Source: Candidatus Poriferihabitaceae bacterium (GTDB lineage Bacteria > Pseudomonadota > Gammaproteobacteria > Arenicellales > Poriferihabitantaceae). Taken from it: 64,000 nucleotides of DNA. Below are positions 30,501 to 53,885 of the stretch, in pieces. Where the stretch lies: positions 2,568,741-2,632,740 of the forward strand of contig CBDBJR010000002.1 in NCBI GenBank assembly GCA_965206445.1, given 5' to 3'. The notes under the pieces were generated by a model. That model searched no databases and had not been told where the DNA came from. It was given only the letters and a program-made list of their open reading frames with translations. Position numbers and translations under genes: made by a program. Positions within the stretch are counted from its first letter, which is position 1. Each line of letters opens with the position of its first letter.

Positions 30501-30538
30501 GAAACGCCCGGTCGTGTTCGTTCAAGACGGGCGTTTTC
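30501..30538 (+). terminator. rho-independent terminator after the SBP gene
   Basis: AAACGCCCG (30502-30510) pairs with CGGGCGTTT (30528-30536) and is followed by a T run. Confidence 0.6.
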
Positions 30539-30718
30539 TATGGTAACCAACGGATGAGTAGCGCCGTACTTTGCTCCGCGTCGTTAACATTGACCGCGGC
30601 CTCGCTGACTATTTTGTTAGCAGTCGCAGTCATTTGAAGGTGTTTTACCCAGCGCCATCAAGAAACGAGATGCGAAGTCACCGTTGTTTTTTCGGGAAAA
30701 GCATCACAAATCTGCACT

Positions 30719-32245: not shown

Positions 32246-32255
32246 GTGCGCGCCA

Positions 32256-35289: not shown

Positions 35290-36083
35290 AATGGGCACGT
35301 ATAGTCCCAGCTGTCTACATCATTTTTTTGATGCTGCCGATCTACTGGCTATTGAGCATGTCCTTCCGCACCACAAACGAAATTCTGGGCGGGTTCTCTC
35401 TGTTCCCAAGGAATATTACGTTTGAAAATTATAAAACCATCTTCACCGATCCAACCTGGTACTGGGGTTATTTCAATTCGTTAATTTACGTCTCCATCAA
35501 CACGGTTTTTTCGGTGGCAATGGCACTGCCCGCTGCTTACGCCTTTTCACGCTACCGCTTTTTAGGTGACCGGCACTTGTTTTTCTGGTTGTTGAGCAAT
35601 CGCATGGCACCGCCGGCAGTATTTGCATTGCCGTTTTTTCAACTCTACTCATCGGTCGGACTGTTTGATACACATATCGCCGTAGCATGTGCGCATTTTT
35701 TGTTTAACGTACCCCTTGCAGTCTGGATACTGGAGGGTTTTATATCCGGCATACCCAAAGAACTTGATGAAATGTCATTCATTGACGGCTACTCGTTTCC
35801 GCGTTTTTTCGTCAAAATATTATTGCCTGTAATCGTTTCGGGAGTCGGAGTTGCTGCATTTTTTTGCTTCATGTTTTCATGGGTTGAGCTGCTATTGGCA
35901 AAAACGCTTACGGCGGTGGAGGCAAAACCTATTGCAGCTACGATGACACGTACGGCAAGCACCTCGGGCTACGAGCTCGGGTTGTTGGCAGCAGCAGGCT
36001 CGCTGACACTGGTGCCAGGGGCGATGGTCATCTGGTTTGTGCGCGATTACATCGCCAAAGGATTTTCGATGGGCAGGGTCTGA
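35286..36083 (+). CDS. ABC sugar-type permease 2
   Basis: Polytopic protein with the EAA-like loop LDEMSFIDGYSFPRFFVKILLP. ATGA coupling to the previous gene. Confidence 0.88.
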   Translation: MKWARIVPAVYIIFLMLPIYWLLSMSFRTTNEILGGFSLFPRNITFENYKTIFTDPTWYWGYFNSLIYVSINTVFSVAMALPAAYAFSRYRFLGDRHLFFWLLSNRMAPPAVFALPFFQLYSSVGLFDTHIAVACAHFLFNVPLAVWILEGFISGIPKELDEMSFIDGYSFPRFFVKILLPVIVSGVGVAAFFCFMFSWVELLLAKTLTAVEAKPIAATMTRTASTSGYELGLLAAAGSLTLVPGAMVIWFVRDYIAKGFSMGRV

Positions 36084-36407: not shown

Positions 36408-37895
36408 ATGAGCGAGCCTTACATATTGGTATTGGATCAGGGCACTACCAGCTCCCGCGCGATTTTGTTTGACCGTGATGGTATTACTCGATACACCGCA
36501 CAGAAAGAACTGACTCAACACTACCCGGCGGACGGCTGGGTTGAACACGACGCGGATGAAATCGTTGCGGGCGCGCTTGCAGTATGCGGCGAAGCGATTG
36601 TTCATGCCGACCGCAACGATTTGCAAATTGCCGCACTCGGTATCACCAACCAGCGTGAGACGACGGTGGTGTGGGAGCGGCAAAGCGGCAAACCGCTCCA
36701 TCGTGCCATCGTGTGGCAGGATCGGCGCACCACTGATGTGTGTGAAGCCCTGCGCGAGCTGGGCATTGAGCCTGAAGTCAACTCGCGCAGCGGGCTGCTG
36801 ATTGATCCGTATTTTTCAGCCACCAAAATTGCCTGGATCCTTGACCATGTAGCAGGCGCACGGCAGCGTGCCGAACGTGGTGAGCTCGCTTTTGGCACCA
36901 CCGATTGTTATCTGTTGTGGCGCCTCACCGGTGGACGGGTGCACGCGACCGATGCGACCAACGCTTCGCGCACCCTGCTGTTCAACATCCACACCGGGCA
37001 GTGGGATGATGTGCTGCTCAGACACTTTAACGTGCCGCGCGAGATGTTGCCGGAAGTCAAAGATTGTGCCGCCGACTACGGCAATGTGTCTTTACCGGGT
37101 GCCATATTGCCGCTGTGCGGAGTCGCAGGTGACCAGCAAGCGGCGGCAATCGGGCAAGCATGTTTCCACCCGGGTATGGTCAAGAGCACTTACGGCACCG
37201 GCTGTTTCGTGCTGATGCACACCGGCGAGCAGCAAGTGCAATCGAAAAATCGCCTGCTCACCACCATCGCCTGGCGTCTCGACGGCAACACACGTTACGC
37301 GCTGGAAGGCTCCATATTCAACGCCGGCTCCACGGTGCAATGGTTGCGCGATGGCCTGGGGTTGCTTGAATCCGCCGAAGACAGTGAGCGCATGGCGCAA
37401 CAACGCGATTCAAACAACGGTGTGTATCTGGTGCCGGCATTCACCGGACTTGGGGCGCCGCACTGGGATGCGCGCGCGCGCGGCGGCATTTTTGGATTGA
37501 CCCGCGATACTACGGCGGCCGACTTTGCACGCGCCGCATTGGAATCCGTGTGCTATCAGACCTTTGATCTTCTCGAAGCGATGAGCGACGATGCCGGAAA
37601 GCCAAACGCGATACGCGTAGACGGTGGCATGTGCGTGAATAACTGGCTGATGCAGTTTCTGGCGGACATTGTGCAACTGCCGGTGGAGCGCCCACAAATT
37701 GTCGAGACCACTGCGCTCGGTGCGGCCTTCCTTGCGGGGTTGCAGTGTGGCGTGTATGCCGGGCTTGACGACCTGAGTCAACGTTATGCGTTGCAACGGC
37801 GGTTTACTCCGGCGATGGATGAGCAACAACGCGCAGCTCTGTGCGCGGCATGGAGACGCTCGGTGCAACGGATACGGAGCGAGCAGAGAAATTAG
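36408..37895 (+). CDS. glpK: glycerol kinase
   Basis: [31 protein letters not shown] and [15 protein letters not shown] are canonical GlpK motifs. Confidence 0.95.
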
Positions 37896-40119: not shown

Positions 40120-41895
40120 ATGAAAAAACTTCGTAGCAGAGAATGGTTCGACAATGCCGTCGACCCGGGCATGACCGCGCTTTATCTGGAACGCCAACTT
40201 AACTTTGGACTGACCAGAGAAGAGTTGCAATCCGGCAGACCTGTCATCGGCATCTCCCAGACTGGCAGCGACATCGCACCTTGTAACCGCATACATCTGG
40301 CGCTGGTGCAGCGGGTCAAAGAAGGCGTGCGCGCCGGCGGCGGTCTGCCGCTGGAGTTTCCAGTGCATCCTATTCAGGAAACGTTGCGTCGTCCGACTGC
40401 CGCGCTGGATCGCAATCTTGCCTACCTCGGTTTGGTGGAAATTTTGCACGGTTACCCGCTGGATGGCGTGGTGCTGACTACCGGTTGCGATAAAACCACA
40501 CCAGCCGCCCTGATGGCCGCGGCCACCGCAGATTTGCCAGCCATCGTTCTTTCCGGTGGGCCCATGCTGGATGGCTGGTACAACGGGGAACGAGCGGGTT
40601 CCGGTATGGTGATCTGGCACGGGCGGCAGTTGCGTGCCGCCGGCAAAATTAACGATGAGGAGTTTATGGAGATGGCCGCCGCCTCCGCCCCTTCCGCCGG
40701 GCACTGCAACACCATGGGCACTGCGCTGACGATGAACTCGCTGGCCGAAGCGCTGGGCATGTCGCTGCCGGGCTGCGCCGCCATACCCGCACCGTTGCGT
40801 GAACGCGCGCAAATGGCTTTTTTTACCGGCCAACGTGCGGTCGCCATGGTGCGCGAGGATTTGCGCCCATCTAAAATCTTGACGCGCAAAGCCGTGGAAA
40901 ATGCCATCGTCGTCAACAGTGCCATCGGCGGGTCAACGAATGCACCGATTCACATCACGGCGATTGCGCGCCATGCCGGTCTGGAGCTGCCGATTGATGA
41001 GTGGCAGCGCATCGGCTTGCCCATTCCGTTGCTGGTGAATTGCCAACCGGCCGGCGAATATTTAGGCGAGAGCTATCATCGCGCCGGCGGCGTGCCGGCG
41101 GTATGTGCGGAGCTGCTGACGGCAAAAAAACTGCATGGAAATGTCCTCACCGTGACCGGGAAAACCCTCGCCCAGAACCTCAAACAATATTTTTCGAGCG
41201 TCGGCAAAGTCGATCGACGGGTGATCTTCCCGTTCAAAAAACCACTCAAGAAACGCGCCGGATTCATCGTCTTGCGCGGTAATTTATTTGACTCGGCGAT
41301 CATGAAAACCTCGGTCATCAGCGAGGAGTTTACGCAACGACATCTTCGCAAACACGGACGCCCCAACATCCTGGAAGGCCGCGTCGTTGTGTTTGAAGGG
41401 TCGGAAGATTATCGCCGGCGGATTGACGATCCCGCACTTAAAATCGACGCCGAAACCATTCTGGTGGTGCGTGGCGTCGGTGTTTCAGGCTGGCCCGGTG
41501 CTGCTGAGGTTGTGAACATGGAGCCGCCGGCAAAATTGATCAAACGCGGCATTACATCGCTGCCTTGCATTGGCGACGGTCGTCAATCCGGCACATCGGC
41601 CAGCCCTTCGATTTTAAATGCCACACCGGAGGCCGCCATTGGCGGCGGTTTGGCGCTCATCAAAACCGGCGACCGGGTGCGCATAGATTTGACTAAAGGT
41701 ACGGCCAATATGCTGATTGCCGATGACGAACTGGCAGGCCGCAAAAAAGCGTGGAACCCACCCAGACTCGAAAACCAGACGCCATGGCAGGAACTGTTTC
41801 GCAGAGAAACAGGGCAACTGGAGACTGGCGCCTGCCTGGATTTTGCCGTGGCCAAACGCCGCGTCACGCGCAAAACCCCGCGCCACAATCACTAA
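40120..41895 (+). CDS. IlvD/Edd-family sugar-acid dehydratase (arabonate/xylonate dehydratase-like)
   Basis: MKKLRSREWF..., TTGCDKTTPA, GHCNTMGTA and SAIGGSTNA motifs. Confidence 0.9.
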   Translation: MKKLRSREWFDNAVDPGMTALYLERQLNFGLTREELQSGRPVIGISQTGSDIAPCNRIHLALVQRVKEGVRAGGGLPLEFPVHPIQETLRRPTAALDRNLAYLGLVEILHGYPLDGVVLTTGCDKTTPAALMAAATADLPAIVLSGGPMLDGWYNGERAGSGMVIWHGRQLRAAGKINDEEFMEMAAASAPSAGHCNTMGTALTMNSLAEALGMSLPGCAAIPAPLRERAQMAFFTGQRAVAMVREDLRPSKILTRKAVENAIVVNSAIGGSTNAPIHITAIARHAGLELPIDEWQRIGLPIPLLVNCQPAGEYLGESYHRAGGVPAVCAELLTAKKLHGNVLTVTGKTLAQNLKQYFSSVGKVDRRVIFPFKKPLKKRAGFIVLRGNLFDSAIMKTSVISEEFTQRHLRKHGRPNILEGRVVVFEGSEDYRRRIDDPALKIDAETILVVRGVGVSGWPGAAEVVNMEPPAKLIKRGITSLPCIGDGRQSGTSASPSILNATPEAAIGGGLALIKTGDRVRIDLTKGTANMLIADDELAGRKKAWNPPRLENQTPWQELFRRETGQLETGACLDFAVAKRRVTRKTPRHNH

Positions 41896-41925: not shown

Positions 41926-43443
41926 TTACATGATTGCGCCAACATGCCACGGCACAAATTCATAGTCACCCAGCCCCTGGGCTTCGCTCCATGTCTGCTC
42001 GCCGGAAGCCACGGTAATCAGTTTGCGGAATATTTCTTCACCAACCGATGACACCGATGCCTTGCCGTCCAGAATTGCGCCGGCATTAATGTCCATATCC
42101 TCCGGCATGCGGCGAAAAATTTCACTGTTACTGGAAATTTTCATGCACGGCGCCGGCTTGCTGCCAAAAGCGGAACCGCGCCCGGTTGTAAATGCGATAA
42201 GGTTACACCCGCCGGCGATTTCGCCGGTTACCGAGGCCGGATCGTACCCGGGCGTATCCATCAAGACAAAACCTTTTTGCTTGACGCTTTCAGCGTAACG
42301 ATATACGCCGTTGAGATTTGTAGTGCCGCCTTTGGCGACAGCGCCGAGTGATTTTTCCAAAATGGTTGTCAACCCCCCGCGCTTGTTTCCCGGGGTTGGG
42401 TTATTGTTCATCGTGCCCTTGTTCCTGGCACTGTAATCTTCCCACCATAAAATACGATCAATCAGTTCCTGCGCAACTTGCGGCTTGCAGGCGCGCCTCG
42501 TGAGGAGGTGTTCGGCACCATAGACTTCAGGGGTTTCAGCAAGGACGGCAGTGCCGCCGTGTTGCACCAGAAGGTCGACCGCAGCACCCAGCGCCGGGTT
42601 GGCGGTGACACCCGACCAGCCATCGGAGCCGCCACATTGCAACCCCAGAGTCAGCCCCGCTACCGGACACAGCTCACGCCGTGCCTGATTGGCCAGCGGC
42701 AGCATTTCTTCGATGGCGCGAATACCCAGTTCAATGGTTTTACGCAAACCGCCGCAGCCCTGTATGTTCATGGTTTTGCGCACGGTGGCATCTTTTAATA
42801 CCCCTTTCGCATAAAATTCAACTTGATTTACTTCGCAACCGAGCCCGACCATGAGCGCACCGGCGATATTGGGGTGACGGGCGTACCCGCTCATCACCCG
42901 GCGCAGATTAGCGGCGCCTTCACCACTGCCGTCAATGCCGCAGCCGCCATCGTGAACAAACGCGGTAACGCCGTCAATGTTAGGGAAGGCCGCGAGTTTG
43001 TCGCAGGTGAAATGCGCGGCAATCAGGCGAGCGGCGGTGGCGGAACAATTGACACTGGAAAGAACGCCGATAAAATTGCGTGTACCAATGCCGCCGTCGG
43101 CACGCCGATAGCCCATGAACATGGCGCGCTCCTTGTCGGGCACGAACGCTGTCGGATTTGTCTTGGTGCACATTTCATAATCGTGCTCGGTGCCGCGAAA
43201 ACCAACGTTTTGAACGTGTACATGCGTGCCGACGGCGATGCTGTCGGTGGCTTCGCCAATAAACTGGCCGTATTTTTTAACCGGCTGTCCGGCGGAAATC
43301 GAGGCGATGGAGATTTTATGTCCTTTAGGAATATGGTCGACAACCTGCACGCCTTCGATGTTTTCTTTACGTTGCAAATTACGCGCTGCAATCGCGATAT
43401 TATCGCTGTCGTTCAGTACGATTATGGATTTATTTTCAAACAT
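41926..43443 (-). CDS. UxaA/GarD-family (altronate/galactarate dehydratase-like) sugar-acid dehydratase
   Basis: 505 aa with an N-terminal SAF-like region (DNIAIAARNLQRKE...PKGHKISI). The remainder is collinear with UxaA-family proteins. Confidence 0.85.
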   Translation of the reverse strand: MFENKSIIVLNDSDNIAIAARNLQRKENIEGVQVVDHIPKGHKISIASISAGQPVKKYGQFIGEATDSIAVGTHVHVQNVGFRGTEHDYEMCTKTNPTAFVPDKERAMFMGYRRADGGIGTRNFIGVLSSVNCSATAARLIAAHFTCDKLAAFPNIDGVTAFVHDGGCGIDGSGEGAANLRRVMSGYARHPNIAGALMVGLGCEVNQVEFYAKGVLKDATVRKTMNIQGCGGLRKTIELGIRAIEEMLPLANQARRELCPVAGLTLGLQCGGSDGWSGVTANPALGAAVDLLVQHGGTAVLAETPEVYGAEHLLTRRACKPQVAQELIDRILWWEDYSARNKGTMNNNPTPGNKRGGLTTILEKSLGAVAKGGTTNLNGVYRYAESVKQKGFVLMDTPGYDPASVTGEIAGGCNLIAFTTGRGSAFGSKPAPCMKISSNSEIFRRMPEDMDINAGAILDGKASVSSVGEEIFRKLITVASGEQTWSEAQGLGDYEFVPWHVGAIM

Positions 43444-43551
43444 AACAGATGCCCCTCATGATGTAGTAGCCGGATTCGATTTGTTCGATAATGGCCATGG
43501 CGGTCGGCGTAAAACCAAATATTGCGATGGTGTTTCCGGGCTCGCTTTTTT

Positions 43552-44403
43552 CTATCGGCTGCGCTCGGCGACCACCTGCTGGCGTTGTTCGCCCAACCCG
43601 TCGATGCCGAGCGCCACCCCCTGCCCCGCGCGCAAATACACCGGCGGCTTTCTCCCCAGACCGACGCCTTGCGGTGTTCCGGTCGAGATGATATCACCGG
43701 ATTGTAAAGACATGAATTGACTCAAATATGAAATCACATAAGGCACATTGAATATCATGTCGGCGGTATTGCTATCCTGGCGCATTTCGCCATCCACGCT
43801 CAGCCACAACCGAAGATTATCGGGCGCTTTGATTTCATCCGGTGTTACCAGGTACGGGCCGGTCGGACCGAAGGTGTCACAGCTTTTTCCTTTAATCCAT
43901 TGCCCATCTCGCTCCAACTGAAACGCGCGTTCGGAAATATCATGTATCACGCAGTAGCCCGCAATATGTGCAGGCGCGTCTTGTTCGTGCGTATATTTTG
44001 CCGGGCGCCCGATGACTACCCCCAATTCCACTTCCCAGTCCACTTTGCTTGCCCCTTTGGGAATAACGATATCGTCATTCGGGCCGCACATGGCACTGGT
44101 CGCTTTACCAAAAATTACCGGCTCGCGCGGCAACTCCGCCCCCGACTCAATGGCATGCTGCGCATAGTTCAAGCCGATGCAAATAAACTTGCCGGGACGG
44201 GCGATGCAGGATCCCAGGCGCGGTGACCCGGACGCTGCCGGAAAATTTGACACCTCCATGGTTGAAATTTCAGCCAGGTTTTCCGGCAAAAGCGCGTCAC
44301 CGTGCCAATCATCAACCACCGATGACAGGTCACGAATCGTACCGGTTTCATCCAGCAGCCCCGGCTTTTCACAGCCAATTTCGCCAAAACGCAACAGTTT
44401 CAT
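43552..44403 (-). CDS. fumarylacetoacetate hydrolase-family protein (2,4-diketo-3-deoxy-acid hydrolase-like)
   Basis: MKLLRFG..., GLNYAQH, DWEVELGVVIG and GDIISTGTPQGVG motifs. GAGGA lies upstream of ATG 44403. Confidence 0.88.
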   Translation of the reverse strand: MKLLRFGEIGCEKPGLLDETGTIRDLSSVVDDWHGDALLPENLAEISTMEVSNFPAASGSPRLGSCIARPGKFICIGLNYAQHAIESGAELPREPVIFGKATSAMCGPNDDIVIPKGASKVDWEVELGVVIGRPAKYTHEQDAPAHIAGYCVIHDISERAFQLERDGQWIKGKSCDTFGPTGPYLVTPDEIKAPDNLRLWLSVDGEMRQDSNTADMIFNVPYVISYLSQFMSLQSGDIISTGTPQGVGLGRKPPVYLRAGQGVALGIDGLGEQRQQVVAERSR

Positions 44404-44466
44404 AATGCAGTCCTCGGTCGATTGTATTGTTACCAATATAAGTTCACGGATCAGACGCTTACGTGA

Positions 44467-45189
44467 TTAATTTGCCCAGCCGCCGTCGATAACATGAATG
44501 GCACCGGTAGTGAACGCAGATTCATCCGAAGCAAGATACGCCGCCAGCGCCGCAATCTCTTCGGCACTACCCAGTCGCCCCATCGGCTGTCGCGCCACAA
44601 AAGAATCCACCGCCGCTTGATAATCGCCCCCCAATGCCGAGACGCGATCCTCCCAGGAAGGTGTATGCACTGTGCCCGGACAAATTGCATTGCAACGAAT
44701 CCCTTGCGTAACAAAATCCGCAGCGATGGATTTAGTCAAACCGATGACCGCCGCTTTGGTCGCGCCATACACAAACCGGGACGGTGCCCCTTTCACCGAA
44801 GACACAACCGATGACATATTAACAATGGCACCGCCGCCGTTCGCGATCATATCCGGCAAAAAGGCGCGGATTACCCGGTACATGCTTTTCACATTCAGAT
44901 CAAAAGAAAAGTCCCAATCCTTTTCATCGCACTCCAGAATCGTGCCGTGATGCACAAACCCGGCGCAATTAAAAAGAACATCGATCGGACCGGTTTGTTT
45001 AACCAGTGCCTTGATTGCCGTATCGTCCAGTACATCCAGTCGACAGGTTTCACACCCGTCGAGATCCACTGCATTCACATCGGTCGCGATAACACGCGCA
45101 CCTTCGGCAATAAATCTTTGCGCGGTAGCGCGCCCGATACCCTGCGCGGCGGCGGTCACCAGTGCGGTTTTGTTTTTGAGTTTGCTCAT
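44467..45189 (-). CDS. short-chain dehydrogenase/reductase (BDH2 / 2-keto-3-deoxy-L-fuconate dehydrogenase-like)
   Basis: TALVTAAAQGIGRA, NMSS and YGATKAAV SDR motifs. Confidence 0.9.
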   Translation of the reverse strand: MSKLKNKTALVTAAAQGIGRATAQRFIAEGARVIATDVNAVDLDGCETCRLDVLDDTAIKALVKQTGPIDVLFNCAGFVHHGTILECDEKDWDFSFDLNVKSMYRVIRAFLPDMIANGGGAIVNMSSVVSSVKGAPSRFVYGATKAAVIGLTKSIAADFVTQGIRCNAICPGTVHTPSWEDRVSALGGDYQAAVDSFVARQPMGRLGSAEEIAALAAYLASDESAFTTGAIHVIDGGWAN

Positions 45190-45198
45190 TTGGAAGTT

Positions 45199-46266
45199 TT
45201 ATGTTTCGATTCTATTTTCGGTTTTCGGATCAAACAAATGAATTTTATCCGGATTCACGTAAAAGTTGAAGGTGTCGCCCGGCGACAGCGCTTTACTTTC
45301 GTCATATGAGATTTGTAATACAATTCTCTCTTCGCCTAGCATTGCGTGAATGATAGCACCCCCGCCAGTTGGTTCAATCAATTGAACAGTGGCAGCAAGA
45401 GAAGAATTTCCATTGCCGTCTGCCAGTAACAGATCATGCGGACGAATACAGTAAAAAACGTTTTTTGGTAGAGAAACTCGCTCTGGCAAGGGGAATTTTT
45501 TACCATCGATTACGCAATACCCGCCATCAACGACACCTTCAAACACATTAATCTCCGGCGAGCCAACGAAAGTCGCAACATACAGATTGGTTGGCAATGA
45601 ATATATTTCATCCGGACTGCCGATCTGATCAATCCCGCCGTTTCGCATCACCATGATTCGATCGCCCATCGTTATTGCTTCTATTTGGTCGTGAGTAACA
45701 TAAATGGTCGTGGTAGATAAAGATCTGTGTAACGACTTAATCTCACTTCGCACCTTTGCACGAAGTCGAGCATCCAAGTTAGAAAGTGGTTCATCAAAAA
45801 GAAACACGCGTGGGCTTCGAACCATCGCGCGACCCATCGCAACTCGTTGGCGTTGCCCACCTGACAATTCCCCCGGCCGATGCTTGAAATGCTGCTGTAG
45901 CCCGAGCATACTTGCCACCTCTTGCACACGTTTATCAATATCGGCTTTCGCCATCTTTCGAATTTTCAGGCTAAATGCAAGATTTTCATACACCGTCATC
46001 AACGGATACAATGCATAATTTTGAAATACCATCGCAACACCACGCTCACGAGGATGTATCTCGCTCACATTCTTGTCACCAATAAAAACATCTCCGCTGG
46101 TTTGTTTTTCTAATCCTGCTATGATTCTCAACAGCGTGGACTTACCACACCCGGAAGGTCCTAGCATTACCAAAAATTCGCCGTCAGTAACCTCTAAATC
46201 CACTTTGTCCAGCACAATAGAGTTGCCATAGTGCTTTGAGATACGGCTACAAACTACTTGAGACAT
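45199..46266 (-). CDS. ABC sugar-transport ATP-binding protein (MalK/UgpC-like)
   Basis: [23 protein letters not shown] and LFDEPLSNLD motifs. Confidence 0.9.
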   Translation of the reverse strand: MSQVVCSRISKHYGNSIVLDKVDLEVTDGEFLVMLGPSGCGKSTLLRIIAGLEKQTSGDVFIGDKNVSEIHPRERGVAMVFQNYALYPLMTVYENLAFSLKIRKMAKADIDKRVQEVASMLGLQQHFKHRPGELSGGQRQRVAMGRAMVRSPRVFLFDEPLSNLDARLRAKVRSEIKSLHRSLSTTTIYVTHDQIEAITMGDRIMVMRNGGIDQIGSPDEIYSLPTNLYVATFVGSPEINVFEGVVDGGYCVIDGKKFPLPERVSLPKNVFYCIRPHDLLLADGNGNSSLAATVQLIEPTGGGAIIHAMLGEERIVLQISYDESKALSPGDTFNFYVNPDKIHLFDPKTENRIET

Positions 46267-46269
46267 GAT

Positions 46270-47571
46270 TCAAAACTCCATACTTTCGAGAATGCCACAG
46301 TCATCGGCAACATCCAGAATCGTGAAACGGTCACGAATAAACCTCCCATACTTAATCGCATCAATATAAAACTCCGCATCAAAACCCAAATCGCCAGGCG
46401 TCATGTGGGCACCGGCAGCTACCAAAGGTGCTGAAATTTCTTTCACGCTTAACATAACATTGCGAAGCGGTACTACGAATTCATCCCAGTTGTCAGCGAG
46501 ATGTACATTCCACTTGTAAACCAAATCCCTGGTAAATTCTTTTTTTGCATAACATGCAGCGAATTCTGATGTTCCTTGCGAACCAAATTTAGTGGCGAAG
46601 AAATGATTATTGCGCTTAGTATATTGCAGTTGAGGTGGCGTATTTGAATGCAGAATTTTGTTCTGTATTCGTGAGATTGATAATGAGGTAACACCAACTT
46701 GTTCACCGTGCAGGGTTCCTGGATGTTTATCACCTGCAAACATGTCCAAGTAATGCGAAACCATATGTTCAGCCATACTGCCTGGGTGTGTCGTGCCGAC
46801 AACTGCACTGCCAAGACCGTTCAAAGCACAAGTTCGAACCAGCGACGCCAACACATCAAAGTCGCGTTCATGCAGATGCTGGGCGTTGGCAAAAAGAGAT
46901 TCTTCGTCATATGCAAGAAGAGTGTATGGAATTTTGCTATACGGCGTATCCCAAAAAGCTTGCGACAATAGCCAGTCAACTTGTGCAGTTGAGCGACATA
47001 CTACATCGGATAATGCACTATTAACTAACTGCTTTGGGCAGTCGGAAAGAATTTTAAGATCTACGAATACACCCTTTGCACTATGCGCCGGCAACGAGCG
47101 CTTTGTACCACCCTGCGTAATTGATGCAGTGCCCGTAGTGTACGCATTCATTGGAGAAGTTGGGAATACCGAGTAGGTTTTTTTACTGAGAAAGGATGCG
47201 TATTTAATTAAATCGCTAACCGTGCCGGACCCCACCGCAACCAAAATATCTGCATTTCGAGTCAGGTGTTGCAATTCTTTTACACCTTCCATGGTCGACT
47301 TAGGATTGTGCAATGCCAGTAAATCACAGCATCCACCTATACTGGCGGCTACACGGCTACCTAAAATCCCCTCGGTTATCTGGTCACAGACGACGAGGAT
47401 TTTTCCCTTGCCGTGCAACGATCGAATCAATTCGCCCTCAATACCATCCAGCGTATCGCGGATTTCAATGGATTTTATCGGAATGGTCAGGCGTGCGCCA
47501 GAATCCGCGTCTTGCCATGTTCCAGAAACCAATTCGTGCAACACCCCAAGATAGTTGGGTTGTGTATTCAT
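46270..47571 (-). CDS. iron-containing alcohol dehydrogenase superfamily protein, sn-glycerol-1-phosphate dehydrogenase (AraM/EgsA)-like
   Basis: 433 aa with the nucleotide-binding turn AVGSGTVSDLIKYAS and His-rich metal-site region (HPGSMAEHMVSHYLD...HGEQVG). The substrate is unknown. Confidence 0.7.
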   Translation of the reverse strand: MNTQPNYLGVLHELVSGTWQDADSGARLTIPIKSIEIRDTLDGIEGELIRSLHGKGKILVVCDQITEGILGSRVAASIGGCCDLLALHNPKSTMEGVKELQHLTRNADILVAVGSGTVSDLIKYASFLSKKTYSVFPTSPMNAYTTGTASITQGGTKRSLPAHSAKGVFVDLKILSDCPKQLVNSALSDVVCRSTAQVDWLLSQAFWDTPYSKIPYTLLAYDEESLFANAQHLHERDFDVLASLVRTCALNGLGSAVVGTTHPGSMAEHMVSHYLDMFAGDKHPGTLHGEQVGVTSLSISRIQNKILHSNTPPQLQYTKRNNHFFATKFGSQGTSEFAACYAKKEFTRDLVYKWNVHLADNWDEFVVPLRNVMLSVKEISAPLVAAGAHMTPGDLGFDAEFYIDAIKYGRFIRDRFTILDVADDCGILESMEF

Positions 47572-47580
47572 GTTACGCGG

Positions 47581-49077
47581 TTATGTGCTCGCTGTTGACA
47601 TGGCAACTGATTTTGCTGCCGGATAAAGTTCAGTGTAGGCGTTTAGTAGATGTTTATACTCACCAGCATTACATCCGGGTTCAAAACTCGCGGTTATCTT
47701 ACCACACATGTTTTTGCAAGATTGAAGTATCGATGGAAACAACCCGGCACCAGCCGCAGCCACCATTCCAGCCCCCAGTGCTGATGCTTCAATGGTGTCG
47801 GTTCTACATACTAATCGATCAAAGCAATCGGCAAAAATCTGGCACCACATATCGCTTTGTGCGCCACCGCCAACCACATAATACTGCTTGACCGACACGC
47901 CAGTGTCGCGTTCAATCATACGCATGCAATCTGCTTGATCGAGCGCAATCCCTTCCATAACTGCACGATAAAGATGCGCTCGCCCATGACTTCCACCAAG
48001 GCCAAAAATCGCACCTCGTGCGCTTGTATCCCAATGCGGATTCATAGCCCCAGACCAATACGGCAACACTCGCACACCATCTGAACCAGCCGGCAAACTT
48101 GCGGCTTGTGACTCGAGAGCGTCGAATTCACCGCCATTTTTGCCAGCAAATATTTCTCCTACAAGCCAGTTTAAAAGAAACGTGCCAGACCGCAGACAAC
48201 TCTCCATGATATATCCATCGCCGCTCATTGAAGTCATGGTGCGCCACGCATCACCATATACGTATTTGCTGTGATGTGCACCGCAAACTACCGCAGTTCC
48301 TATATTGACATACGCAGTGCTGGCACTCACAACCCCCATTGCAAGTCCGGCGCATTGTCCATCGCCACCGCCTGCAATAACCAGTATTCCTTGCGGAAGC
48401 CCGGTCTGCGACGCGGCTTCTGCATTTATTTCCCCGAGCGGTGTTCCAGGTTTTTCGGCATGCGGAAAAATACTGTCGCTCCAACCCAACTCGCTAAGAA
48501 TTTCATTGGACCAGCATTTGTCTGTGATATTCCAGCAACCCATCGGATCAGCACTCGCCCAACTGGTTTTGAATACGCCAGTTAATCGTTTAACCAGAAA
48601 TCCCTGTACATCGCTTATTACTTGAATGTCGCTGCAGATTTTTGGTTCGTGCTTTCGCATCCAAGCCAACCGATAAACCACTGGCGTTATGTCTTTGTGC
48701 TTACCAGTTATGCGGTGGATTTTGTCTGCGCCGATCTTCTCGGCAAATTCGTCAACCTCATCACGAGCTCGCTCGTCCAGCCAAACAATGGCTGGTGCCA
48801 CAGAATCCGCATTGTTGGTCAAAAACGCCACGGTCTCTCGCTGATTTGAAATCGCCAAAGCGATTGCATTACCCACATCCAATATCTTGCTTAATTCAGA
48901 AATCGCGGTGATAAAAGCCCCCCACCAATGGACTGGGTCTTGTTCATAAATGCCGGGCGCCGGCGTATTTAGCGGAATATCGCATCTTCCTGTGCCGAGA
49001 TTAGCCCCTGAACTACTCCATGCCACAACTTTAGCGGCAGTGGTTGAAATGTCAACTCCAAGTATGAACTTTTCCAT
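47581..49077 (-). CDS. FGGY-family carbohydrate kinase
   Basis: FILGVDISTTAAKVVAW N-terminus, ISNQRETVAF and the GGGAQS C-terminal motif. Confidence 0.88.
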   Translation of the reverse strand: MEKFILGVDISTTAAKVVAWSSSGANLGTGRCDIPLNTPAPGIYEQDPVHWWGAFITAISELSKILDVGNAIALAISNQRETVAFLTNNADSVAPAIVWLDERARDEVDEFAEKIGADKIHRITGKHKDITPVVYRLAWMRKHEPKICSDIQVISDVQGFLVKRLTGVFKTSWASADPMGCWNITDKCWSNEILSELGWSDSIFPHAEKPGTPLGEINAEAASQTGLPQGILVIAGGGDGQCAGLAMGVVSASTAYVNIGTAVVCGAHHSKYVYGDAWRTMTSMSGDGYIMESCLRSGTFLLNWLVGEIFAGKNGGEFDALESQAASLPAGSDGVRVLPYWSGAMNPHWDTSARGAIFGLGGSHGRAHLYRAVMEGIALDQADCMRMIERDTGVSVKQYYVVGGGAQSDMWCQIFADCFDRLVCRTDTIEASALGAGMVAAAGAGLFPSILQSCKNMCGKITASFEPGCNAGEYKHLLNAYTELYPAAKSVAMSTAST

Positions 49078-49155
49078 TTATTATCGACTCGAAAAATACG
49101 CCGGGGGCAATACAACCCCCGGCGCTTTCAAACATCACAGATAAACAAAGCCCGG

Positions 49156-50670
49156 TTAGTAACGCGAAAAGGCTTTATCAACGCCTTTGGAAATTACATC
49201 CAACACTTCTTTGGGCGATGTATAGTCACCAGCAAAAAAGCGTCCCAGTTCAACCGGGATCACACCGTTTGAAACCTCAGCCCAAGCCGGGTGGTCTGGC
49301 TCCGACCCCATGTAACCCTCTATTGCCTTGCGGGTAACATCGAAGTGTCGCGTCGTTCCTGCACCCGGTTGTGCTTTGGCGAGTATCCGCGGGTCTTCGT
49401 AAGTGCTACGTCGCATCGGACTCGCACCGCCACCCAACAACGAGACGCGAATATTCATATCTGCGGACGATCCCCATTGCGCGAAAACCCAAGCCGCATC
49501 AAGATTTTTCGAGTATCTAGATATAGCTAACGCGCTACCTCCTTGGTGAGCGGTGCCTGGTATCTCCCCATGACCTGCCTCGCTTGCCTTGCGCAACTCA
49601 CGCGAAGGCCTTAGTGGTAATGATGGCTCCAGAAGCCCTGACACTTTTGAGTTTTCTGGATTATCCAGACCCGGAAAAAACTCGCCCCACGAATAAACCT
49701 GTGCAGCCAAACCTTGCGCCATTGAAGTAAACTCGCCATCCCAAGTCCAGTTCAGGACATCAGGTGGCATGTTTTCTTTAAGACGAGTCCAGTATTCCAT
49801 TGCATCAATTCCACGTTGGTCGTTGCCAGAAAACTTGCCATCGGGCGAGAATATGGAACCGCCATGCCCCCATAGCCAATTAGTCCAGTCGCACTCCAGG
49901 CTATAATGACCGCTTTTCATCTGCCCAGTTGTGCCGAATAATTTTCCACCGTATTCAGCTTGAATTGCACGGGCGTTGTCAAGATACTGGGTATAAGTAG
50001 TCGGCGCACTCAGTCCCAATTTATCGTAGATATCCTTGCGATACATCACGATAAAAATCGGAATATCGAAAGGCACTCCGACCATTTTACCGCGAAACAT
50101 GCTGATTCCTTCGGTAAGCGGTGCCAGAAAATCATCAAAATCATAATCTGGCATCGCAAGGTCGGGCTTATTGCGGTAGATCTCGCGTGGATCGACGGTG
50201 TCGTTCGAGAATGAAGCCATCCAACTCTGATCGAGATAGTAAAGATCATAAGATCCAATACCGCCAGCAACGTCTTGGGTCAGTTTTTGCAGCACTTGTT
50301 CAAGCGGCACGATCTCCACCTGAACCTCAATGCCAGTATATTTGGTAAAGTCATTCTTCACCAACGTGGACAAAACCTGGCTCGGTGGCGTGGCTTCAGT
50401 GGCATATTTTATGGTGATATCTTTGCCTTTGAACCCTCGGCCGACGTCTTTCAGCCAGGCCGTAATCTCAGGCGACTGCTCGCCCTCGTTGGCAGCATGC
50501 GCCGCTGATATTGGCGAGAATGAGCGATTCGCTAAACCACCAAAAAGACCGGCACCACCAGCAACAAATCCCAACACAGCGGATTGTCGTAGAAAATCTC
50601 TGCGACTGATTTTACCGCAGACAAGTTTCTCAGTAAGTTTTGCCAAATGTTGCATATTAATCGCTTTCAT
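49156..50670 (-). CDS. ABC sugar-type (family 1) substrate-binding protein with a Tat-like signal
   Basis: ISRRDFLRQSAVLGFVAGGAGL twin-arginine leader. GGAGG lies 4 nt upstream of ATG 50670. Confidence 0.85.
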   Translation of the reverse strand: MKAINMQHLAKLTEKLVCGKISRRDFLRQSAVLGFVAGGAGLFGGLANRSFSPISAAHAANEGEQSPEITAWLKDVGRGFKGKDITIKYATEATPPSQVLSTLVKNDFTKYTGIEVQVEIVPLEQVLQKLTQDVAGGIGSYDLYYLDQSWMASFSNDTVDPREIYRNKPDLAMPDYDFDDFLAPLTEGISMFRGKMVGVPFDIPIFIVMYRKDIYDKLGLSAPTTYTQYLDNARAIQAEYGGKLFGTTGQMKSGHYSLECDWTNWLWGHGGSIFSPDGKFSGNDQRGIDAMEYWTRLKENMPPDVLNWTWDGEFTSMAQGLAAQVYSWGEFFPGLDNPENSKVSGLLEPSLPLRPSRELRKASEAGHGEIPGTAHQGGSALAISRYSKNLDAAWVFAQWGSSADMNIRVSLLGGGASPMRRSTYEDPRILAKAQPGAGTTRHFDVTRKAIEGYMGSEPDHPAWAEVSNGVIPVELGRFFAGDYTSPKEVLDVISKGVDKAFSRY

Positions 50671-50981
50671 AATTACCTCCCCACCCTCTCGGGCATCAAC
50701 ACGCCAGGCACTATTGCCTAACGTAAATCGAGCATAGCATATAGCCGCCACCTTGATAATACCACCTATAAATCCACCTTATGCCGTGTTATAAGTATAT
50801 TTAACAAAAATGGCTAGCCACACCAACCATGCAAGTTTCTGAATGTCCGCCAAATATCGTTATCGAACAGCATAAAACGTACACCATATAGAGTTTAAAA
50901 AGCAATGGAAAACTTAAGTTCTTTGGAAGCAGATTCTGCTCAATGCACCTGTGGATATATTAAATATTATTTGCAGCACTC

Positions 50982-51878
50982 TTACTTTAAAGACCCAAGC
51001 GTCAGCCCTCTAACCAAATGCTTTTGTACCAGCACAATAAATATGAACGATGGCAGAATAGCAGCACAGGTTAGCGCCGCCATGTAACCCCAAGCGGTGC
51101 CAGTTGATGTGACAAAAGTTGATGCTGCAACTGGTACTGTATTCACTTTGGCTTGCGTGAGTGAAAGTATGAATAGAAATTCTGTCCAACTAAAAATAAA
51201 ACACAACACAGCGGTCGCTGCAATGCCACCACGCATAGATGGCACGACCAACTGCATAAAAACAGTCAGGCGTGACGCTCCATCCAACATTGCAGCCTCG
51301 TCAATTTCTTTTGGAATGTCATCGATAAAACTTTTGAGTAGTAGCACTGCCAATGGTAAATTCATCAGCGCGTGAATCAGAATCGCTCCAGTATATGTGT
51401 CGATCAGGCCAAACTCGCGATATAAAAAAAACATCGGAAGGGCTACTGCTACCGGCGGCATCATGCGAGTCGACAAAATCCAAAAAACAAAATGATGCCG
51501 GCCAGAAAAACGCATTCGCGATAGCGCGTACGCAGCCAAAACTGAAATTATGACAGTGACAATTGTGCTTGCAATGCTGATATAAACACTATCCAAAAGA
51601 ACTGGCAAGGCAAAAGTTGAACTGCTTTCGCCCCAATGCACAGCACCGCCTTTTTCAATTGATGTTGAGGATGGCGATATTCCAAGCAACACTACTTTGT
51701 AGGACTTAAAGGTTACATCCGGCACAAATAATTTTGGCGGTTTGTTAAATATGTCCTGATCGACCCGTAACGAGACAGAAACCCACCAGTAAAGTGGAAA
51801 CATAAAAGCCACAACCACAAACCACGCTATTGTGGCGCGCAACAAACGCTGCCAGATTTGCGGCTTAGTGATCACCAT
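50982..51878 (-). CDS. ABC sugar-type permease
   Basis: Polytopic protein with EAA loop EIDEAAMLDGASRLTVFMQLVVP. Confidence 0.88.
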   Translation of the reverse strand: MVITKPQIWQRLLRATIAWFVVVAFMFPLYWWVSVSLRVDQDIFNKPPKLFVPDVTFKSYKVVLLGISPSSTSIEKGGAVHWGESSSTFALPVLLDSVYISIASTIVTVIISVLAAYALSRMRFSGRHHFVFWILSTRMMPPVAVALPMFFLYREFGLIDTYTGAILIHALMNLPLAVLLLKSFIDDIPKEIDEAAMLDGASRLTVFMQLVVPSMRGGIAATAVLCFIFSWTEFLFILSLTQAKVNTVPVAASTFVTSTGTAWGYMAALTCAAILPSFIFIVLVQKHLVRGLTLGSLK

Positions 51879-52750
51879 TTAACCCTGGCCGCCTTAATAA
51901 ATATATTTGCAACCACGATTAAAAAAATCAGGGCGAACAAACTCAGCGTCGCCGCATAACCCCATTTCACGAACGAAAAGCTCTGCTTCCATGTATAAAA
52001 GCTTAAAGTTTGCGTGGCGATACCGGGACCACCAGATGTCATAACAAAAACATAATCAAACATCCGAAACAAATCAATGCCTCGGATAAGAACCGCCACG
52101 GCAATAATCGGTCGTAGCATCGGCAAGGTTAAATGCAATAACACATGGCGGAATCTTGCACCATCAATCATAGCCGCCTCAAATGGCTCTCTCGGCAAGG
52201 CGTGCAATCCAGCCAACATGATCAACACCATAAACGGCGTCCACTGCCAAATATCAGCAAGCATAACGCCGACCAAAGCGGTTTTGGGTGATGTTAAAAG
52301 TGGTGCGCCGGGTGCAATCAATCCCAGCCACTGCAACATCCACGACAGCACTCCAAATTGCGAATCTTCCATTAACAAAAACATCATGCCAACCACCGCC
52401 GGCGGCACCACCAACGGCAAAAGCAGCAGGCTTCTAATAATGCTATAGCCGGCGCTGTCAGTGTTGATTAGTATAGCGATGCCCAAACCAAGCACGAATT
52501 GCACTACTAAGCAAACTACTAAATAAATGATGTTCACACCGAAAGCCCGCCACATTTGCTCGTCTTCAAACATGCCGCGCCAGTTGTCAAACCCGACGAA
52601 AGTGAAACTTCGCCTGAATGAATTAAACTCGTGGAAACTCAGGTAGATGTTGTAGAAAAACGGAAACAACGTGAATACGGCAAGCACACAAACAAGCGGA
52701 GCAAGCCATACCCATGGCCGGTCCAGCGACAAAATGGAAAACCTGCTCAT
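51872..52750 (-). CDS. ABC sugar-type permease
   Basis: Polytopic protein with EAA loop PFEAAMIDGARFRHVLLHLTLP. The track start at 52756 is GTG; ATG 52750 was preferred. Confidence 0.86.
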   Translation of the reverse strand: MSRFSILSLDRPWVWLAPLVCVLAVFTLFPFFYNIYLSFHEFNSFRRSFTFVGFDNWRGMFEDEQMWRAFGVNIIYLVVCLVVQFVLGLGIAILINTDSAGYSIIRSLLLLPLVVPPAVVGMMFLLMEDSQFGVLSWMLQWLGLIAPGAPLLTSPKTALVGVMLADIWQWTPFMVLIMLAGLHALPREPFEAAMIDGARFRHVLLHLTLPMLRPIIAVAVLIRGIDLFRMFDYVFVMTSGGPGIATQTLSFYTWKQSFSFVKWGYAATLSLFALIFLIVVANIFIKAARVKW

Positions 52751-52763
52751 ACCCACTTTGTGC

Positions 52764-53408
52764 TCACGATTTTAATCCGTAGTCACGAAACTTCTCAACA
52801 ACATGCATGATCTCATTATCGGGTAGCAGATTCGGACCTCCGAGTAATTTTGAGAATACATACTGCTGCGCCAGCACTTCAATCTCTTTTGCAAGCCACA
52901 AGGCTTTTGCGATACTAGGGCCGGTGGCTATGACACCGTGATTTGCAAGTAAGCACCCATTCCTCCCATCAAGTGCGGTGAGAGCTTGCTCAGACAAGCC
53001 GGGGGTGCCAAATGTTTTGTAGTCGCTGCAACGAATTGTCGGCCCACCAGCAGCGGCGATCATGTAATGCACCGCAGGGATACTCTCGCCCCGAATAGAT
53101 AGAATTGATGCATACATGGAATGCGTATGCACTATGGCGTTGACATCCTCGCGCTTTCGGGTTATATCAAGGTGAAACCGCCATTCGGTCGACGGAACAC
53201 CATCGCCCTCGCGTCCGCCCTCCCAATCAACAAAAACAATGCTGTCCGGCTTCATCGCCTCATATGGAACAGCCGATGGGGTGACCAAAATCCCACCATC
53301 TACTCTCGCACTCACGTTGCCGGAAGTACCTTGGTTAATTCCCATATCGTTCATTTTAATACAGGTTTCAATAATCTCTCGCCTGATGTCGACGCTGGTT
53401 TTTTTCAT
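52764..53408 (-). CDS. class II (metal-dependent) aldolase/adducin-family protein (FucA/AraD-like)
   Basis: GTSGNVSAR and HTHS motifs. GGAGAA RBS upstream. First gene of the minus-strand operon. Confidence 0.88.
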   Translation of the reverse strand: MKKTSVDIRREIIETCIKMNDMGINQGTSGNVSARVDGGILVTPSAVPYEAMKPDSIVFVDWEGGREGDGVPSTEWRFHLDITRKREDVNAIVHTHSMYASILSIRGESIPAVHYMIAAAGGPTIRCSDYKTFGTPGLSEQALTALDGRNGCLLANHGVIATGPSIAKALWLAKEIEVLAQQYVFSKLLGGPNLLPDNEIMHVVEKFRDYGLKS

Positions 53409-53443
53409 GGATTTTCTCCGATTGAAGTTGCAAGATGGCAGTG

Positions 53444-53520
53444 ATTATAAACCAAACCAATTGTGTGGACACTCCGAAACGAAAATCTCTATTTGATATA
53501 GAAAGTAACCCAGCCCCAGG
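53444..53520 (-). repeat. 16S-tail / spacer-start repeat, copy 1
   Basis: The core AATTGTGTGGACACTCCGAAAC (53459-53480) matches 59550-59571 at 19 of 22 positions in the same orientation. The flanks show weaker, gapped similarity. Confidence 0.65.
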
Positions 53521-53885
53521 CTCCCCCGGAGCTACCGTGTCACGGCTTCACCCCAGCCATGAACCATACCGTAGTAACCGCTCCCTCGAAGGTAAGCCAG
53601 CCACTTCTGGCACAGCCCACTCCCATGGTGTGACGGACGGTGTGTACAAGCCCCGGAAACATATTCACCGCGGCATTCTGACCCACGGTTCCCGGCGATT
53701 TCGACTTCATGGAGCCGAGTTGCAGACACCAATCCGGACTACGACCGGTTTTCCGGGATTGGCTTGCTCTCGCGACCCTCTGTACCGGCCATTGTAGCAG
53801 GTGGGCAGCCCTGCCTATAAGAGCCATGATGACTTGACGCCATTCCCCCCTTCCTCCGGTTTATCACCGGCAGGCTCCTATACTG
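53497..53885 (-). pseudogene. degenerate 3'-domain fragment of a 16S rRNA gene (roughly E. coli positions 1160-1542)
   Basis: The plus strand reads as the reverse complement of a 16S 3' end. Examples: ...CTTCACCCCAGCCATGAACCAT..., CCCACTCCCATGGTGTGACGGACGGTGTGTACAAGCCCCGGAAACATATTCACCGCGGCATTCTGA, GACTTCATGGAGCCGAGTTGCAGACACCAATCCGGACTACGA, CATTGTAGCAGGTG, CCATGATGACTTGACGCCATTCCCCCCTTCCTCCGGTTTATCACCGGCAGGCTCC. There are many substitutions at universally conserved positions. Confidence 0.85.

Follow-up and report, generated by a model that had tools for sequence, protein, structure and literature searches.

The window analysed here, a 64-kb stretch (64,000 nucleotides) of contig CBDBJR010000002.1 from a Candidatus Poriferihabitaceae bacterium, carries on its minus strand an uninterrupted run of ten consecutive open reading frames (ORFs) at 41926 to 53408. 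An earlier note on this DNA had counted eleven genes and implied a single undescribed route. The ORF list contains ten, and a single new pathway made from all of them is not supported. We consider it probable that the genes are two unrelated catabolic units, unit A (45199 to 53408) and unit B (41926 to 45189), joined by a recent genome rearrangement. The arrangement would be a recent strain-specific fusion, in which a probably imported polyol or sugar cassette (uptake, kinase, dehydrogenase, aldolase) lies directly upstream of a partly deleted acid-sugar cluster. Read 5' to 3' along the string, the genes are:

52764 to 53408, minus strand: FucA-type class II (Zn) ketose-1-phosphate aldolase, 214 aa (Pfam Aldolase_II, 6e-50)
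51872 to 52756, minus strand: CUT1 permease 1, MalF/UgpA-like (Pfam BPD_transp_1)
50982 to 51878, minus strand: CUT1 permease 2, MalG/UgpE-like (Pfam BPD_transp_1)
49156 to 50670, minus strand: solute-binding protein exported by twin-arginine translocation (Tat), 504 aa (SBP_bac_1, 3e-25; twin-arginine motif SRRDFL)
47581 to 49077, minus strand: FGGY-family carbohydrate kinase, 498 aa (Pfam FGGY_N and FGGY_C)
46270 to 47571, minus strand: metal-dependent dehydrogenase resembling AraM and glycerol-1-phosphate (G1P) dehydrogenase (G1PDH), 433 aa (Fe-ADH_2, 1e-23)
45199 to 46266, minus strand: MalK/UgpC-type ATP-binding cassette (ABC) ATPase with TOBE domain, the last cassette gene (ABC_tran and TOBE_2)
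44467 to 45189, minus strand: short-chain dehydrogenase/reductase (SDR) of the L-2-keto-3-deoxyfuconate (2-keto-3-deoxy acid) 4-dehydrogenase type, BDH2-like (PDB 8xwk, 2.7e-94; BDH2 2ag5, 4e-84)
43552 to 44406 (or 44436), minus strand: FAH-family 2,4-diketo-3-deoxy-acid hydrolase (PDB 8gsr, L-2,4-diketo-3-deoxyrhamnonate hydrolase, 8.7e-83)
41926 to 43443, minus strand: UxaA/GarD-family acid-sugar dehydratase, 505 aa (GD_AH_C, 4e-100; PDB 6u7l, 1.7e-91)

The family calls of the earlier note, 'BDH2-like SDR' and 'AraM-like' included, were all borne out by Pfam, NCBIfam, PDB and fold searches, and we count the gene families as demonstrated. The genes are separated by 7, -7, 311, 78, 9, 3, 9, 60, and 108 nt, the last value being exactly the gap that had been reported before UxaA. 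Each of the seven cassette genes has 45 to 50% G+C (42 to 56% at third codon positions, GC3), and the segment has 47% overall. The SDR, FAH, and UxaA genes have 54 to 55% G+C (GC3 55 to 61%), and the genes flanking the string have 56 to 65% (GC3 64 to 80%), with the flanks at ~60% overall. The rise in G+C described previously thus contains a real step at the ATPase/SDR boundary, but the gradient is much weaker than claimed: SDR and FAH, given as 52 to 68%, measure 54 to 55%, and UxaA, given as about 70%, measures 55% and is not G+C-rich. The suggestion that modules had been joined could be shown directly by comparing strains. The isomerase, sugar 1-dehydrogenase, and lactonase that had been missed from the string are indeed absent from it by Pfam and NCBIfam. 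As to the reported lack of a regulator, a SorC-type homologue is absent from the 64-kb window; other regulator families were not screened.

The comparison drew on contigs of the same species (97 to 99% nucleotide identity), found through the UxaA protein (L085) and the G1PDH-like protein (L093 and L094, ~3.9-Mb contigs from the same sample as each other). It involves three further features of the window:

45190 to 53691, minus strand: cassette-bearing segment, present in the window, L093, and L094 and absent from L085 (blastn)
43458 to 43498, minus strand: deletion scar, the first 41 nt of an MR_MLE gene whose remainder, with DctPQM (4.2 kb), is found in three related contigs
53498 to 53880 (5' end approximate), minus strand: degenerate 16S rRNA 3'-terminal fragment (Rfam RF00177, 273 bits, model ~1140 to 1533)

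The UxaA of L085 is 99% identical to that of the window, and blastn gave 96.7 to 97.9% identity on both sides of the cassette. L085 lacks 8,502 bp of the window, from 45190 to 53691, and has instead 184 bp with an intact tRNA-Ile(GAT). Between its FAH and UxaA genes, it carries 4.2 kb with an enolase-superfamily MR_MLE gene and genes for DctP, DctQ, and DctM of a tripartite ATP-independent periplasmic (TRAP) importer. L093 and L094, which are 99.3 to 99.4% identical to the window over 14.1 kb (blastn), combine the seven-gene block with the MR_MLE/TRAP block (at 14074 to 18312) in a 14-gene string. The window represents a third arrangement, with the cassette and without MR_MLE/TRAP. Because 41 nt of the MR_MLE gene remain in the 108-nt gap, the gap is a deletion scar, and the state of the window is the derived one; the junction shows a CAT microhomology at 43458 to 43460. 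Strain polymorphism and scar are both counted as demonstrated, and the comparison demonstrates that modules of different origin were joined at this locus.

The borders of the cassette differ in character. The upstream one is the 16S fragment, which sits between an Opp/Dpp operon and the aldolase gene, gave two matches above the gathering score in the whole-window Rfam scan, and has a mutated anti-Shine-Dalgarno sequence. In L085, the 16S fragment extends only to model position ~1335, and the tRNA-Ile(GAT) comes next. A tRNA-Ile gene is the usual first gene of a 16S-23S spacer. Most simply, the site would originally have held a dead rRNA-operon remnant, and the cassette would have replaced the spacer/tRNA part of it; the foreign part is probably 45190 to 53497, with 47% G+C. 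At the downstream border, the homology with L085 restarts exactly at the SDR start codon. Thus, the SDR gene in cassette-bearing strains has lost its own upstream region, and its start codon now lies 9 nt past the ATPase stop codon. Because the cassette has replaced the 5' region of the SDR gene at this distance, unit B is probably transcribed by read-through from unit A; transcription units were judged from gene spacing only. The first 250 nt of the SDR gene (44940 to 45189) have 14 mismatches to L085 and the next 1,480 nt of SDR-FAH 26, an approximately threefold higher density in the former, which suggests that a recombination tract ends within the SDR gene and hints that the cassette haplotype is spreading in the population by homologous recombination. 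Pfam and NCBIfam revealed no integrase or transposase within 45190 to 53691, and no direct repeats were found at the cassette borders.

Relatives of the cassette are numerous. A word-indexed search with the G1PDH-like protein returned 724 matches at E<=1e-10, and 397 clusters were obtained at E<=1e-30 among 1.84 billion representatives; the family, about 400 clusters at 50% identity, comes from marine, sponge-associated, soil, and rhizobial genomes. We compared the neighborhoods (radius 10 kb) of 80 loci from species-representative genomes with the window proteins; 45 of these loci were fully flanked. In 74 of the 80, the G1PDH-like gene has the FGGY gene immediately before it. Not one of the 80 has an FAH, UxaA, or IlvD homologue within 10 kb (E<=1e-5). 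The kinase/aldolase block forms a self-contained cassette. The pair is accompanied in Gamma-, Alpha-, and Deltaproteobacteria by the same two permeases, a binding protein of ~500 aa, and the ATPase, as judged in those marine and soil metagenome-assembled genome (MAG) loci that reach far enough, and the verrucomicrobial loci have a different (CUT2) transporter. A FucA-like aldolase (46 to 80% identity) is present in 28 of the fully flanked loci and missing from the other 17. Further companions in these 45 loci are a divergent SorC-type regulator (32), a second SDR (25), a homologue of GpsA-like NAD-dependent glycerol-3-phosphate dehydrogenase (21), and RpiB (13), and an HAD phosphatase or MDR dehydrogenase is another common extra. 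SorC, GpsA-like, RpiB, HAD, and MDR proteins have no homologue in the 64-kb window, and the second SDR shows only weak similarity there, namely 31 to 34% to the window's own SDR. An aldose-ketose isomerase of the FucI/RhaA type is absent from the string and from the related loci.

The closest cassettes are those of sponge-associated Arenicellales and gammaproteobacterial MAGs, with 72 to 85% protein and 71 to 77% DNA identity. A rhizobial version occurs in Rhizobium etli p42a, R. leguminosarum, and a Sinorhizobium meliloti replicon, and an Acidiphilium plasmid carries a version with a CUT2-type transporter instead (L089 to L092). Pooled across records, the rhizobial layout has FGGY and SorC divergent from the remaining genes, which are those for the G1PDH-like enzyme, HAD-IIB, and GlpD; two permeases and the binding protein; and SDR, UgpC, an aldolase/SDR fusion, and GpsA. 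A megablast search of PLSDB with the whole string gave no match. We found no paper that describes the kinase/G1PDH-like/aldolase combination, a weak absence because subscription journals were mostly outside coverage. With its conservation counted as demonstrated, the cassette is a widespread kinase/G1PDH-like/FucA-like module with its own ABC importer, for which we found no description.

Several observations weigh against the reading of two unrelated units. The cassette-SDR fusion is tight, with a 9-nt gap and no terminator-like site in between, and it is maintained in three haplotypes, including dominant ones; selection for co-expression of cassette and SDR may be at work. Both units could meet at C2 products (glycolaldehyde, glycolate), and genes resembling those for glyoxylate reductase and tartronate-semialdehyde reductase are in the vicinity. 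These same features, together with the shared direction of all genes, speak for one integrated, co-regulated pathway for a single substrate split across both branches. We nevertheless regard such a pathway as very improbable, because none of the 80 related cassettes has FAH, UxaA, or IlvD nearby, one strain has an SDR-FAH-MR_MLE-TRAP-UxaA cluster without any cassette, and the acid-sugar cluster once had a TRAP importer and an enolase-type enzyme of its own. In addition, the G+C content changes from 45 to 54% exactly at the junction, and there is no sugar 1-dehydrogenase or lactonase to turn a neutral import into an acid sugar. On the two-unit reading, unit A and unit B share no intermediate. 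As for how the cassette came to lie here, it has both a deviant composition and a presence/absence pattern among conspecifics, as looked for in horizontal acquisition. The direction of transfer is what we infer: insertion, as opposed to loss from L085, is read from the G+C content and the tRNA-Ile of L085, and the want of an integrase and direct repeats counts against it. If the cassette were ancestral and L085 had lost it, its low G+C would need another cause than recent import. Such a loss would agree with the presence of the cassette in three of four haplotypes, with the lack of an integrase, transposase, or target duplication alongside, and with the fact that L085 itself is missing the last ~200 nt of the 16S fragment. 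We hold this to be unlikely, because L085 has an intact tRNA-Ile(GAT) just where a remnant of 16S and its spacer should have one, which fits replacement by the cassette; cassette GC3 is 20 to 30 points under that of the neighboring genes; and the closest homologues (72 to 85% amino acid identity) are found in other sponge-associated gammaproteobacterial MAGs. A transfer from a gammaproteobacterium to an alphaproteobacterium, raised because the named matches of UxaA are alphaproteobacterial, was rejected, since a housekeeping-type M18 aminopeptidase (a single and weak marker) suggests an uncultured host among sponge-associated Gammaproteobacteria, the broad group in which the closest cassettes also occur.

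In unit A, catalytic residues, which we count as demonstrated, support an assignment of the aldolase. It matches E. coli FucA (1fua) over its full length (1.7e-63). Conserved are the Zn-binding H92, H94, and H155, the catalytic residues E73, Y113, and Y209, and N29 and S71 of the phosphate pocket; in place of S72 of FucA there is a Thr, a conservative change. These roles are known from structural work on FucA. Given the conservation of these residues, the aldolase should cleave a ketose-1-phosphate to dihydroxyacetone phosphate (DHAP) and an aldehyde. Its NCBIfam score (NF005984, 245 bits) is under the cutoff of 264. The kinase stays below every equivalog cutoff: its top NCBIfam match is XylB (280 bits, cutoff 380), FucK gives 130 bits (cutoff 471), and the PDB matches to xylulokinase, glycerol kinase, and gluconokinase are all ~1e-40. 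The dehydrogenase does not reach equivalog level either (NF002022, 147 bits, cutoff 413). Its AlphaFold model (pLDDT 92) has B. subtilis AraM 9h4x as the best fold match (TM 0.76/0.83), followed by M. jannaschii G1PDH, with P. calidifontis G1PDH also among the top matches; glycerol dehydrogenases rank after the G1PDHs, and FucO (1rrm) is 47th. The motifs GSGT..D, D189, EH269..SH273, LH288GEQ, and IRDRFTIL align with those of true G1PDHs, and D189, H269/H273, and H288 are invariant across the G1PDH-like family. The enzyme is 15 to 19% identical to solved G1PDHs and ~80 to 100 aa longer than the archaeal ones. In the 80 loci, its gene has a catabolic neighborhood of kinase, transporter, and aldolase; no ether-lipid gene was noticed there, and no search was aimed at one.

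The importer genes come with three presumed regulatory or spacer elements:

53409 to 53497, minus strand: leader and presumed promoter region, 89 nt from the end of the 16S fragment to the aldolase start codon, with a TATAAT-like hexamer
50671 to 50981, minus strand: spacer between permease 2 and binding protein, 311 nt, 40% G+C
49098 to 49125, minus strand: G+C-rich hairpin with T-run directly 3' of the binding-protein gene, 11-bp stem with 9 G-C pairs

A consensus scan found promoter-like sites no more frequently than in shuffled sequence. The two permeases are 84% (permease 1) and 85% (permease 2) identical to their homologues in the Arenicellales cassette. For the long spacer, we found neither a homologue in related cassettes nor an Rfam match, and its sequence is not repeated elsewhere in the window. 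Its equivalent in the closest cassette (Arenicellales, L005) is ~83 nt; the spacer of the window may contain an internal promoter or a small inserted segment. A hairpin with a T-run after a binding-protein gene is a common attenuation layout for downstream ABC genes, and the one here probably acts in this way, adjusting the amount of binding protein relative to the membrane components. The true start of the binding protein is at ~50670, which gives 504 aa and matches its homologues; the protein is 55 to 57% identical to those of the rhizobial cluster version. The ATPase scores above its cutoff (NF008653, 443 bits, cutoff 432). The nearest solved structure to the binding protein is 5iai (1.3e-30), which was crystallized with ribitol (PMC8468352).

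The proposed working of unit A would be as follows. The binding protein, the two CUT1 permeases, and the MalK-type ATPase would import a neutral polyol or ketose, at best guess a pentitol such as D-arabitol or ribitol. The FGGY kinase would phosphorylate a terminal hydroxyl to give a polyol-1-phosphate, the AraM/G1PDH-like enzyme would oxidize the adjacent C2-OH (as in G1P to DHAP) to a ketose-1-phosphate, and the FucA-type Zn aldolase would split this into DHAP and glycolaldehyde or lactaldehyde. A phosphorylated polyol is favored as the substrate of the dehydrogenase by the near-invariant coupling to the kinase, by the persistence of the kinase/G1PDH-like pair in the 17 fully flanked loci without aldolase, and by the frequent company of GpsA-like or GlpD-like enzymes, the known homologues of which use phosphorylated polyols as substrates. 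The pair would then be a 'phosphorylate first, oxidize beside the phosphate' entry to polyol catabolism, a reading that we offer tentatively and at less than even confidence; both the substrate and the order of kinase and dehydrogenase belong to what is inferred. Such a route may correspond to EryA/EryB, but with NAD(P) dependence and opposite stereochemistry. If both the G1P-type C2 stereochemistry and the FucA-type (3R,4R) specificity were kept, D-arabitol, L-fucitol, or related hexitols would fit, and D-arabitol would be processed via D-ribulose-1-phosphate, yielding glycolaldehyde.

Against this proposal, it counts that 5iai is only ~27% identical to the window binding protein and that the kinase, being equidistant from three kinases, could phosphorylate a ketose after a dehydrogenase-first step. 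In the latter case, the G1PDH-like enzyme would oxidize the free polyol to a ketose, from which the FGGY kinase would make a ketose-1-phosphate for the aldolase. FucK and RhaB, which make ketose-1-phosphates, are the model for this kinase step, and a polyol dehydrogenase with an FGGY ketose kinase is the classical pentitol operon of the textbooks. Glycerol dehydrogenases as the next-best fold matches behind G1PDHs and xylulokinase as the top NCBIfam match of the kinase point the same way. We think this order rather doubtful, since the enzyme is nearer to AraM/G1PDH than to GldA, has the C-terminal IRxRxTIL motif in common with M. jannaschii G1PDH, and is joined in relatives by GpsA-/GlpD-like enzymes and a separate SDR or MDR polyol dehydrogenase. 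Alternatively, the G1PDH-like enzyme might reduce the aldolase product (glycolaldehyde or lactaldehyde), in the manner of FucO or the haloarchaeal glycolaldehyde reductase. The fuc regulon, as textbooks have it, unites an FGGY kinase, a class II aldolase, and an Fe-ADH. A precedent, which also tells against the kinase-first order, is Halobacterium VNG_6270G, annotated as G1PDH and in reality a glycolaldehyde reductase downstream of a FucA-type ribulose-1-phosphate aldolase (PMC9700705). In the cassettes, however, the gene is coupled to the kinase while the aldolase is often divergent or distant, no aldolase lies within 10 kb of the pair in 17 of the 45 fully flanked loci, and FucO ranks just 47th among the fold matches, which makes an aldehyde reductase distinctly unlikely.

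Phosphorylation first, followed by oxidation beside the phosphate, has a parallel in the Brucella/rhizobial erythritol route, which consists of the EryA kinase, the EryB erythritol-phosphate dehydrogenase, the SorC-type regulator EryD, and RpiB. The proposed logic of unit A is that of this route, in which the polyol is phosphorylated and the carbon next to the phosphate is then oxidized, and cassette relatives carry a SorC regulator, GlpD-/GpsA-like enzymes, and RpiB. In contrast, the window dehydrogenase is an NAD(P)/metal-dependent G1PDH homologue while EryB is an FAD-dependent homologue of GlpD, the stereochemistry is probably opposite, and aldol cleavage takes the place of isomerization to erythrose-4-phosphate. 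SorC, GpsA-like, and RpiB proteins are absent from the window, where the sole GlpD belongs to a glycerol block (30719 to 32245). Unit A draws on the same three enzyme families as the E. coli L-fucose/D-arabinose route (FucK, FucA, FucO), namely FGGY kinases, class II Zn aldolases, and the Fe-ADH superfamily, and the expected products are likewise DHAP and lactaldehyde or glycolaldehyde. Unlike that route, the window has no FucI-type isomerase, its kinase is not a FucK equivalog (130 bits where 471 are needed), its third enzyme is AraM/G1PDH-like rather than FucO-like, and uptake would be by a CUT1 ABC importer as opposed to FucP.

The araABDLMNPQ operon of B. subtilis encodes an FGGY kinase, a class II aldolase-family enzyme, a G1PDH-like protein, an HAD phosphatase, and a CUT1 binding protein with two permeases. 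Its AraM is the best structural match of the window dehydrogenase, and its HAD phosphatase has a counterpart in cassette relatives but not in the window. AraM, a Ni-dependent G1P dehydrogenase, is nevertheless only 18% identical to the window enzyme, and the window aldolase is FucA-like rather than an AraD epimerase (245 versus 67 bits). AraM provides the G1P of an ether lipid, and arabinose can be used without it (PMC4244643). The haloarchaeal non-carboxylating pentose bisphosphate pathway also has a FucA-type aldolase, which converts pentulose-1-phosphate to DHAP and glycolaldehyde, and a G1PDH-like protein in the same pathway, a likeness by annotation and pathway (PMC9700705). It differs in that its G1PDH-like enzyme acts as an aldehyde reductase, with no activity on G1P or DHAP (PMC9700705), and in that it starts from nucleosides, without an FGGY kinase or ABC importer.

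Unit B, the acid-sugar half of the string, is biochemistry that has already been described. As part of the two-unit reading, we consider it likely to be the remnant of a resident cluster for 'Route III', in which a dehydratase, a 4-dehydrogenase, and a hydrolase lead to pyruvate and lactate or glycolate. A UxaA/GarD-family D-arabinonate dehydratase is known from this route (PMC6336799), so that the dehydratase role proposed in the earlier note for the UxaA family has a basis in the literature. In unit B, an acid-sugar dehydratase would form a 2-keto-3-deoxy acid, the L-2-keto-3-deoxyfuconate dehydrogenase-type SDR would oxidize its C4, and the FAH hydrolase would release pyruvate and glycolate, lactate, or glycerate. 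The SDR match 8xwk is the L-2-keto-3-deoxyfuconate 4-dehydrogenase (L-KDFDH) of Herbaspirillum huttiense, which binds its substrate through Arg148, Arg192, and Arg214 (PMC11199699); R138, R182, and R200 of the window SDR align with these. The FAH protein scores 363 bits with NF053535, below the cutoff of 500, and has an H84..E87 dyad comparable to His83/Glu86 of PMC6336799. UxaA (TIGR03248, 378 bits, cutoff 731) has C133, C168, C203, and C270 in the spacing of four conserved Fe-ligand cysteines. Convergent with it is one further gene:

40120 to 41895, plus strand: IlvD/EDD-family dehydratase (PF00920; NF009560, 988 bits)

The UxaA-IlvD pair is 79% identical in nucleotide sequence to that of a distant relative (L086), where SDR and FAH are not adjacent; UxaA is more stably linked to the IlvD-family dehydratase than to SDR/FAH. 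Near the pair in L086 (16427 to 19071) are also a DUF1537-type kinase and a RuBisCO-like protein, both of which are absent from the window. This pairing is a feature of D-apionate and acid-sugar catabolism.

The SDR of the window is alike to that of Route III, a pathway of Herbaspirillum huttiense and Sphingomonas; the FAH protein resembles the hydrolase of the route, though below equivalog level, and a putative acid-sugar dehydratase of the UxaA/GarD family lies adjacent, as in the D-arabinose cluster. Unlike there, the window has no sugar dehydrogenase, lactonase, or importer, and the native enolase-type partner and TRAP have been deleted. The earlier impression of one route is not supported, as the cassette is self-contained elsewhere and SDR/FAH had other partners, namely the enolase-type enzyme and TRAP. 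Unit B of the window no longer has the TRAP importer and enolase-type enzyme of the cluster, and thereby has no dedicated dehydratase; SDR and FAH are intact. The string contains no entry to Route III, be it a sugar 1-dehydrogenase with lactonase or an acid-sugar importer, and DctPQM is absent from the window; only UxaA, or the neighboring IlvD-type enzyme, could now feed unit B. The best matches of the MR_MLE enzyme are the uncharacterized 'racemase' 2ovl and 3,6-anhydro-L-galactonate cycloisomerase, which hints at a red-algal acid sugar, and not fuconate, as the possible substrate of the resident cluster; on the same matches, an assignment of this enzyme as L-fuconate dehydratase was rejected. 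Between the window and L085, SDR and FAH have 23 synonymous and 11 non-synonymous codon differences, compared to 32 and 4 in three Opp genes, a pattern suggestive of relaxed selection on SDR/FAH in which the sites are far too few for a claim.

The window is compositionally patchy from 26 to 53 kb. A second low-G+C block (48 to 51% G+C) lies at 27365 to 36083 on the plus strand, beside an IS5-type DDE transposase (27365 to 28423). It is a glycerol system of the rhizobial type, with a 580-aa binding protein, GlpD (30719 to 32245), two ATPases, and two permeases, and is followed by a GlpK gene of normal G+C (36408 to 37895). This block may be another acquired module.

For genome mining, the locus is a caution: a tight co-directional string with complementary-looking chemistry was here the outcome of an insertion/deletion accident, and the mosaic could be seen only thanks to conspecific strains with other arrangements. 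Since the cassette has replaced the region upstream of the SDR gene, the locus is also a natural example of regulatory rewiring through horizontal transfer. The conserved cassette is a clean target with no assigned substrate that we could find, and its plasmid- and chromid-borne versions in culturable bacteria are tractable systems for finding one. If the kinase-first order is true, bacterial G1PDH homologues would have a role in catabolism for which we found no earlier description. The cassette thus offers a concrete handle on the role of bacterial homologues of the 'archaeal' G1P dehydrogenase outside lipid synthesis.

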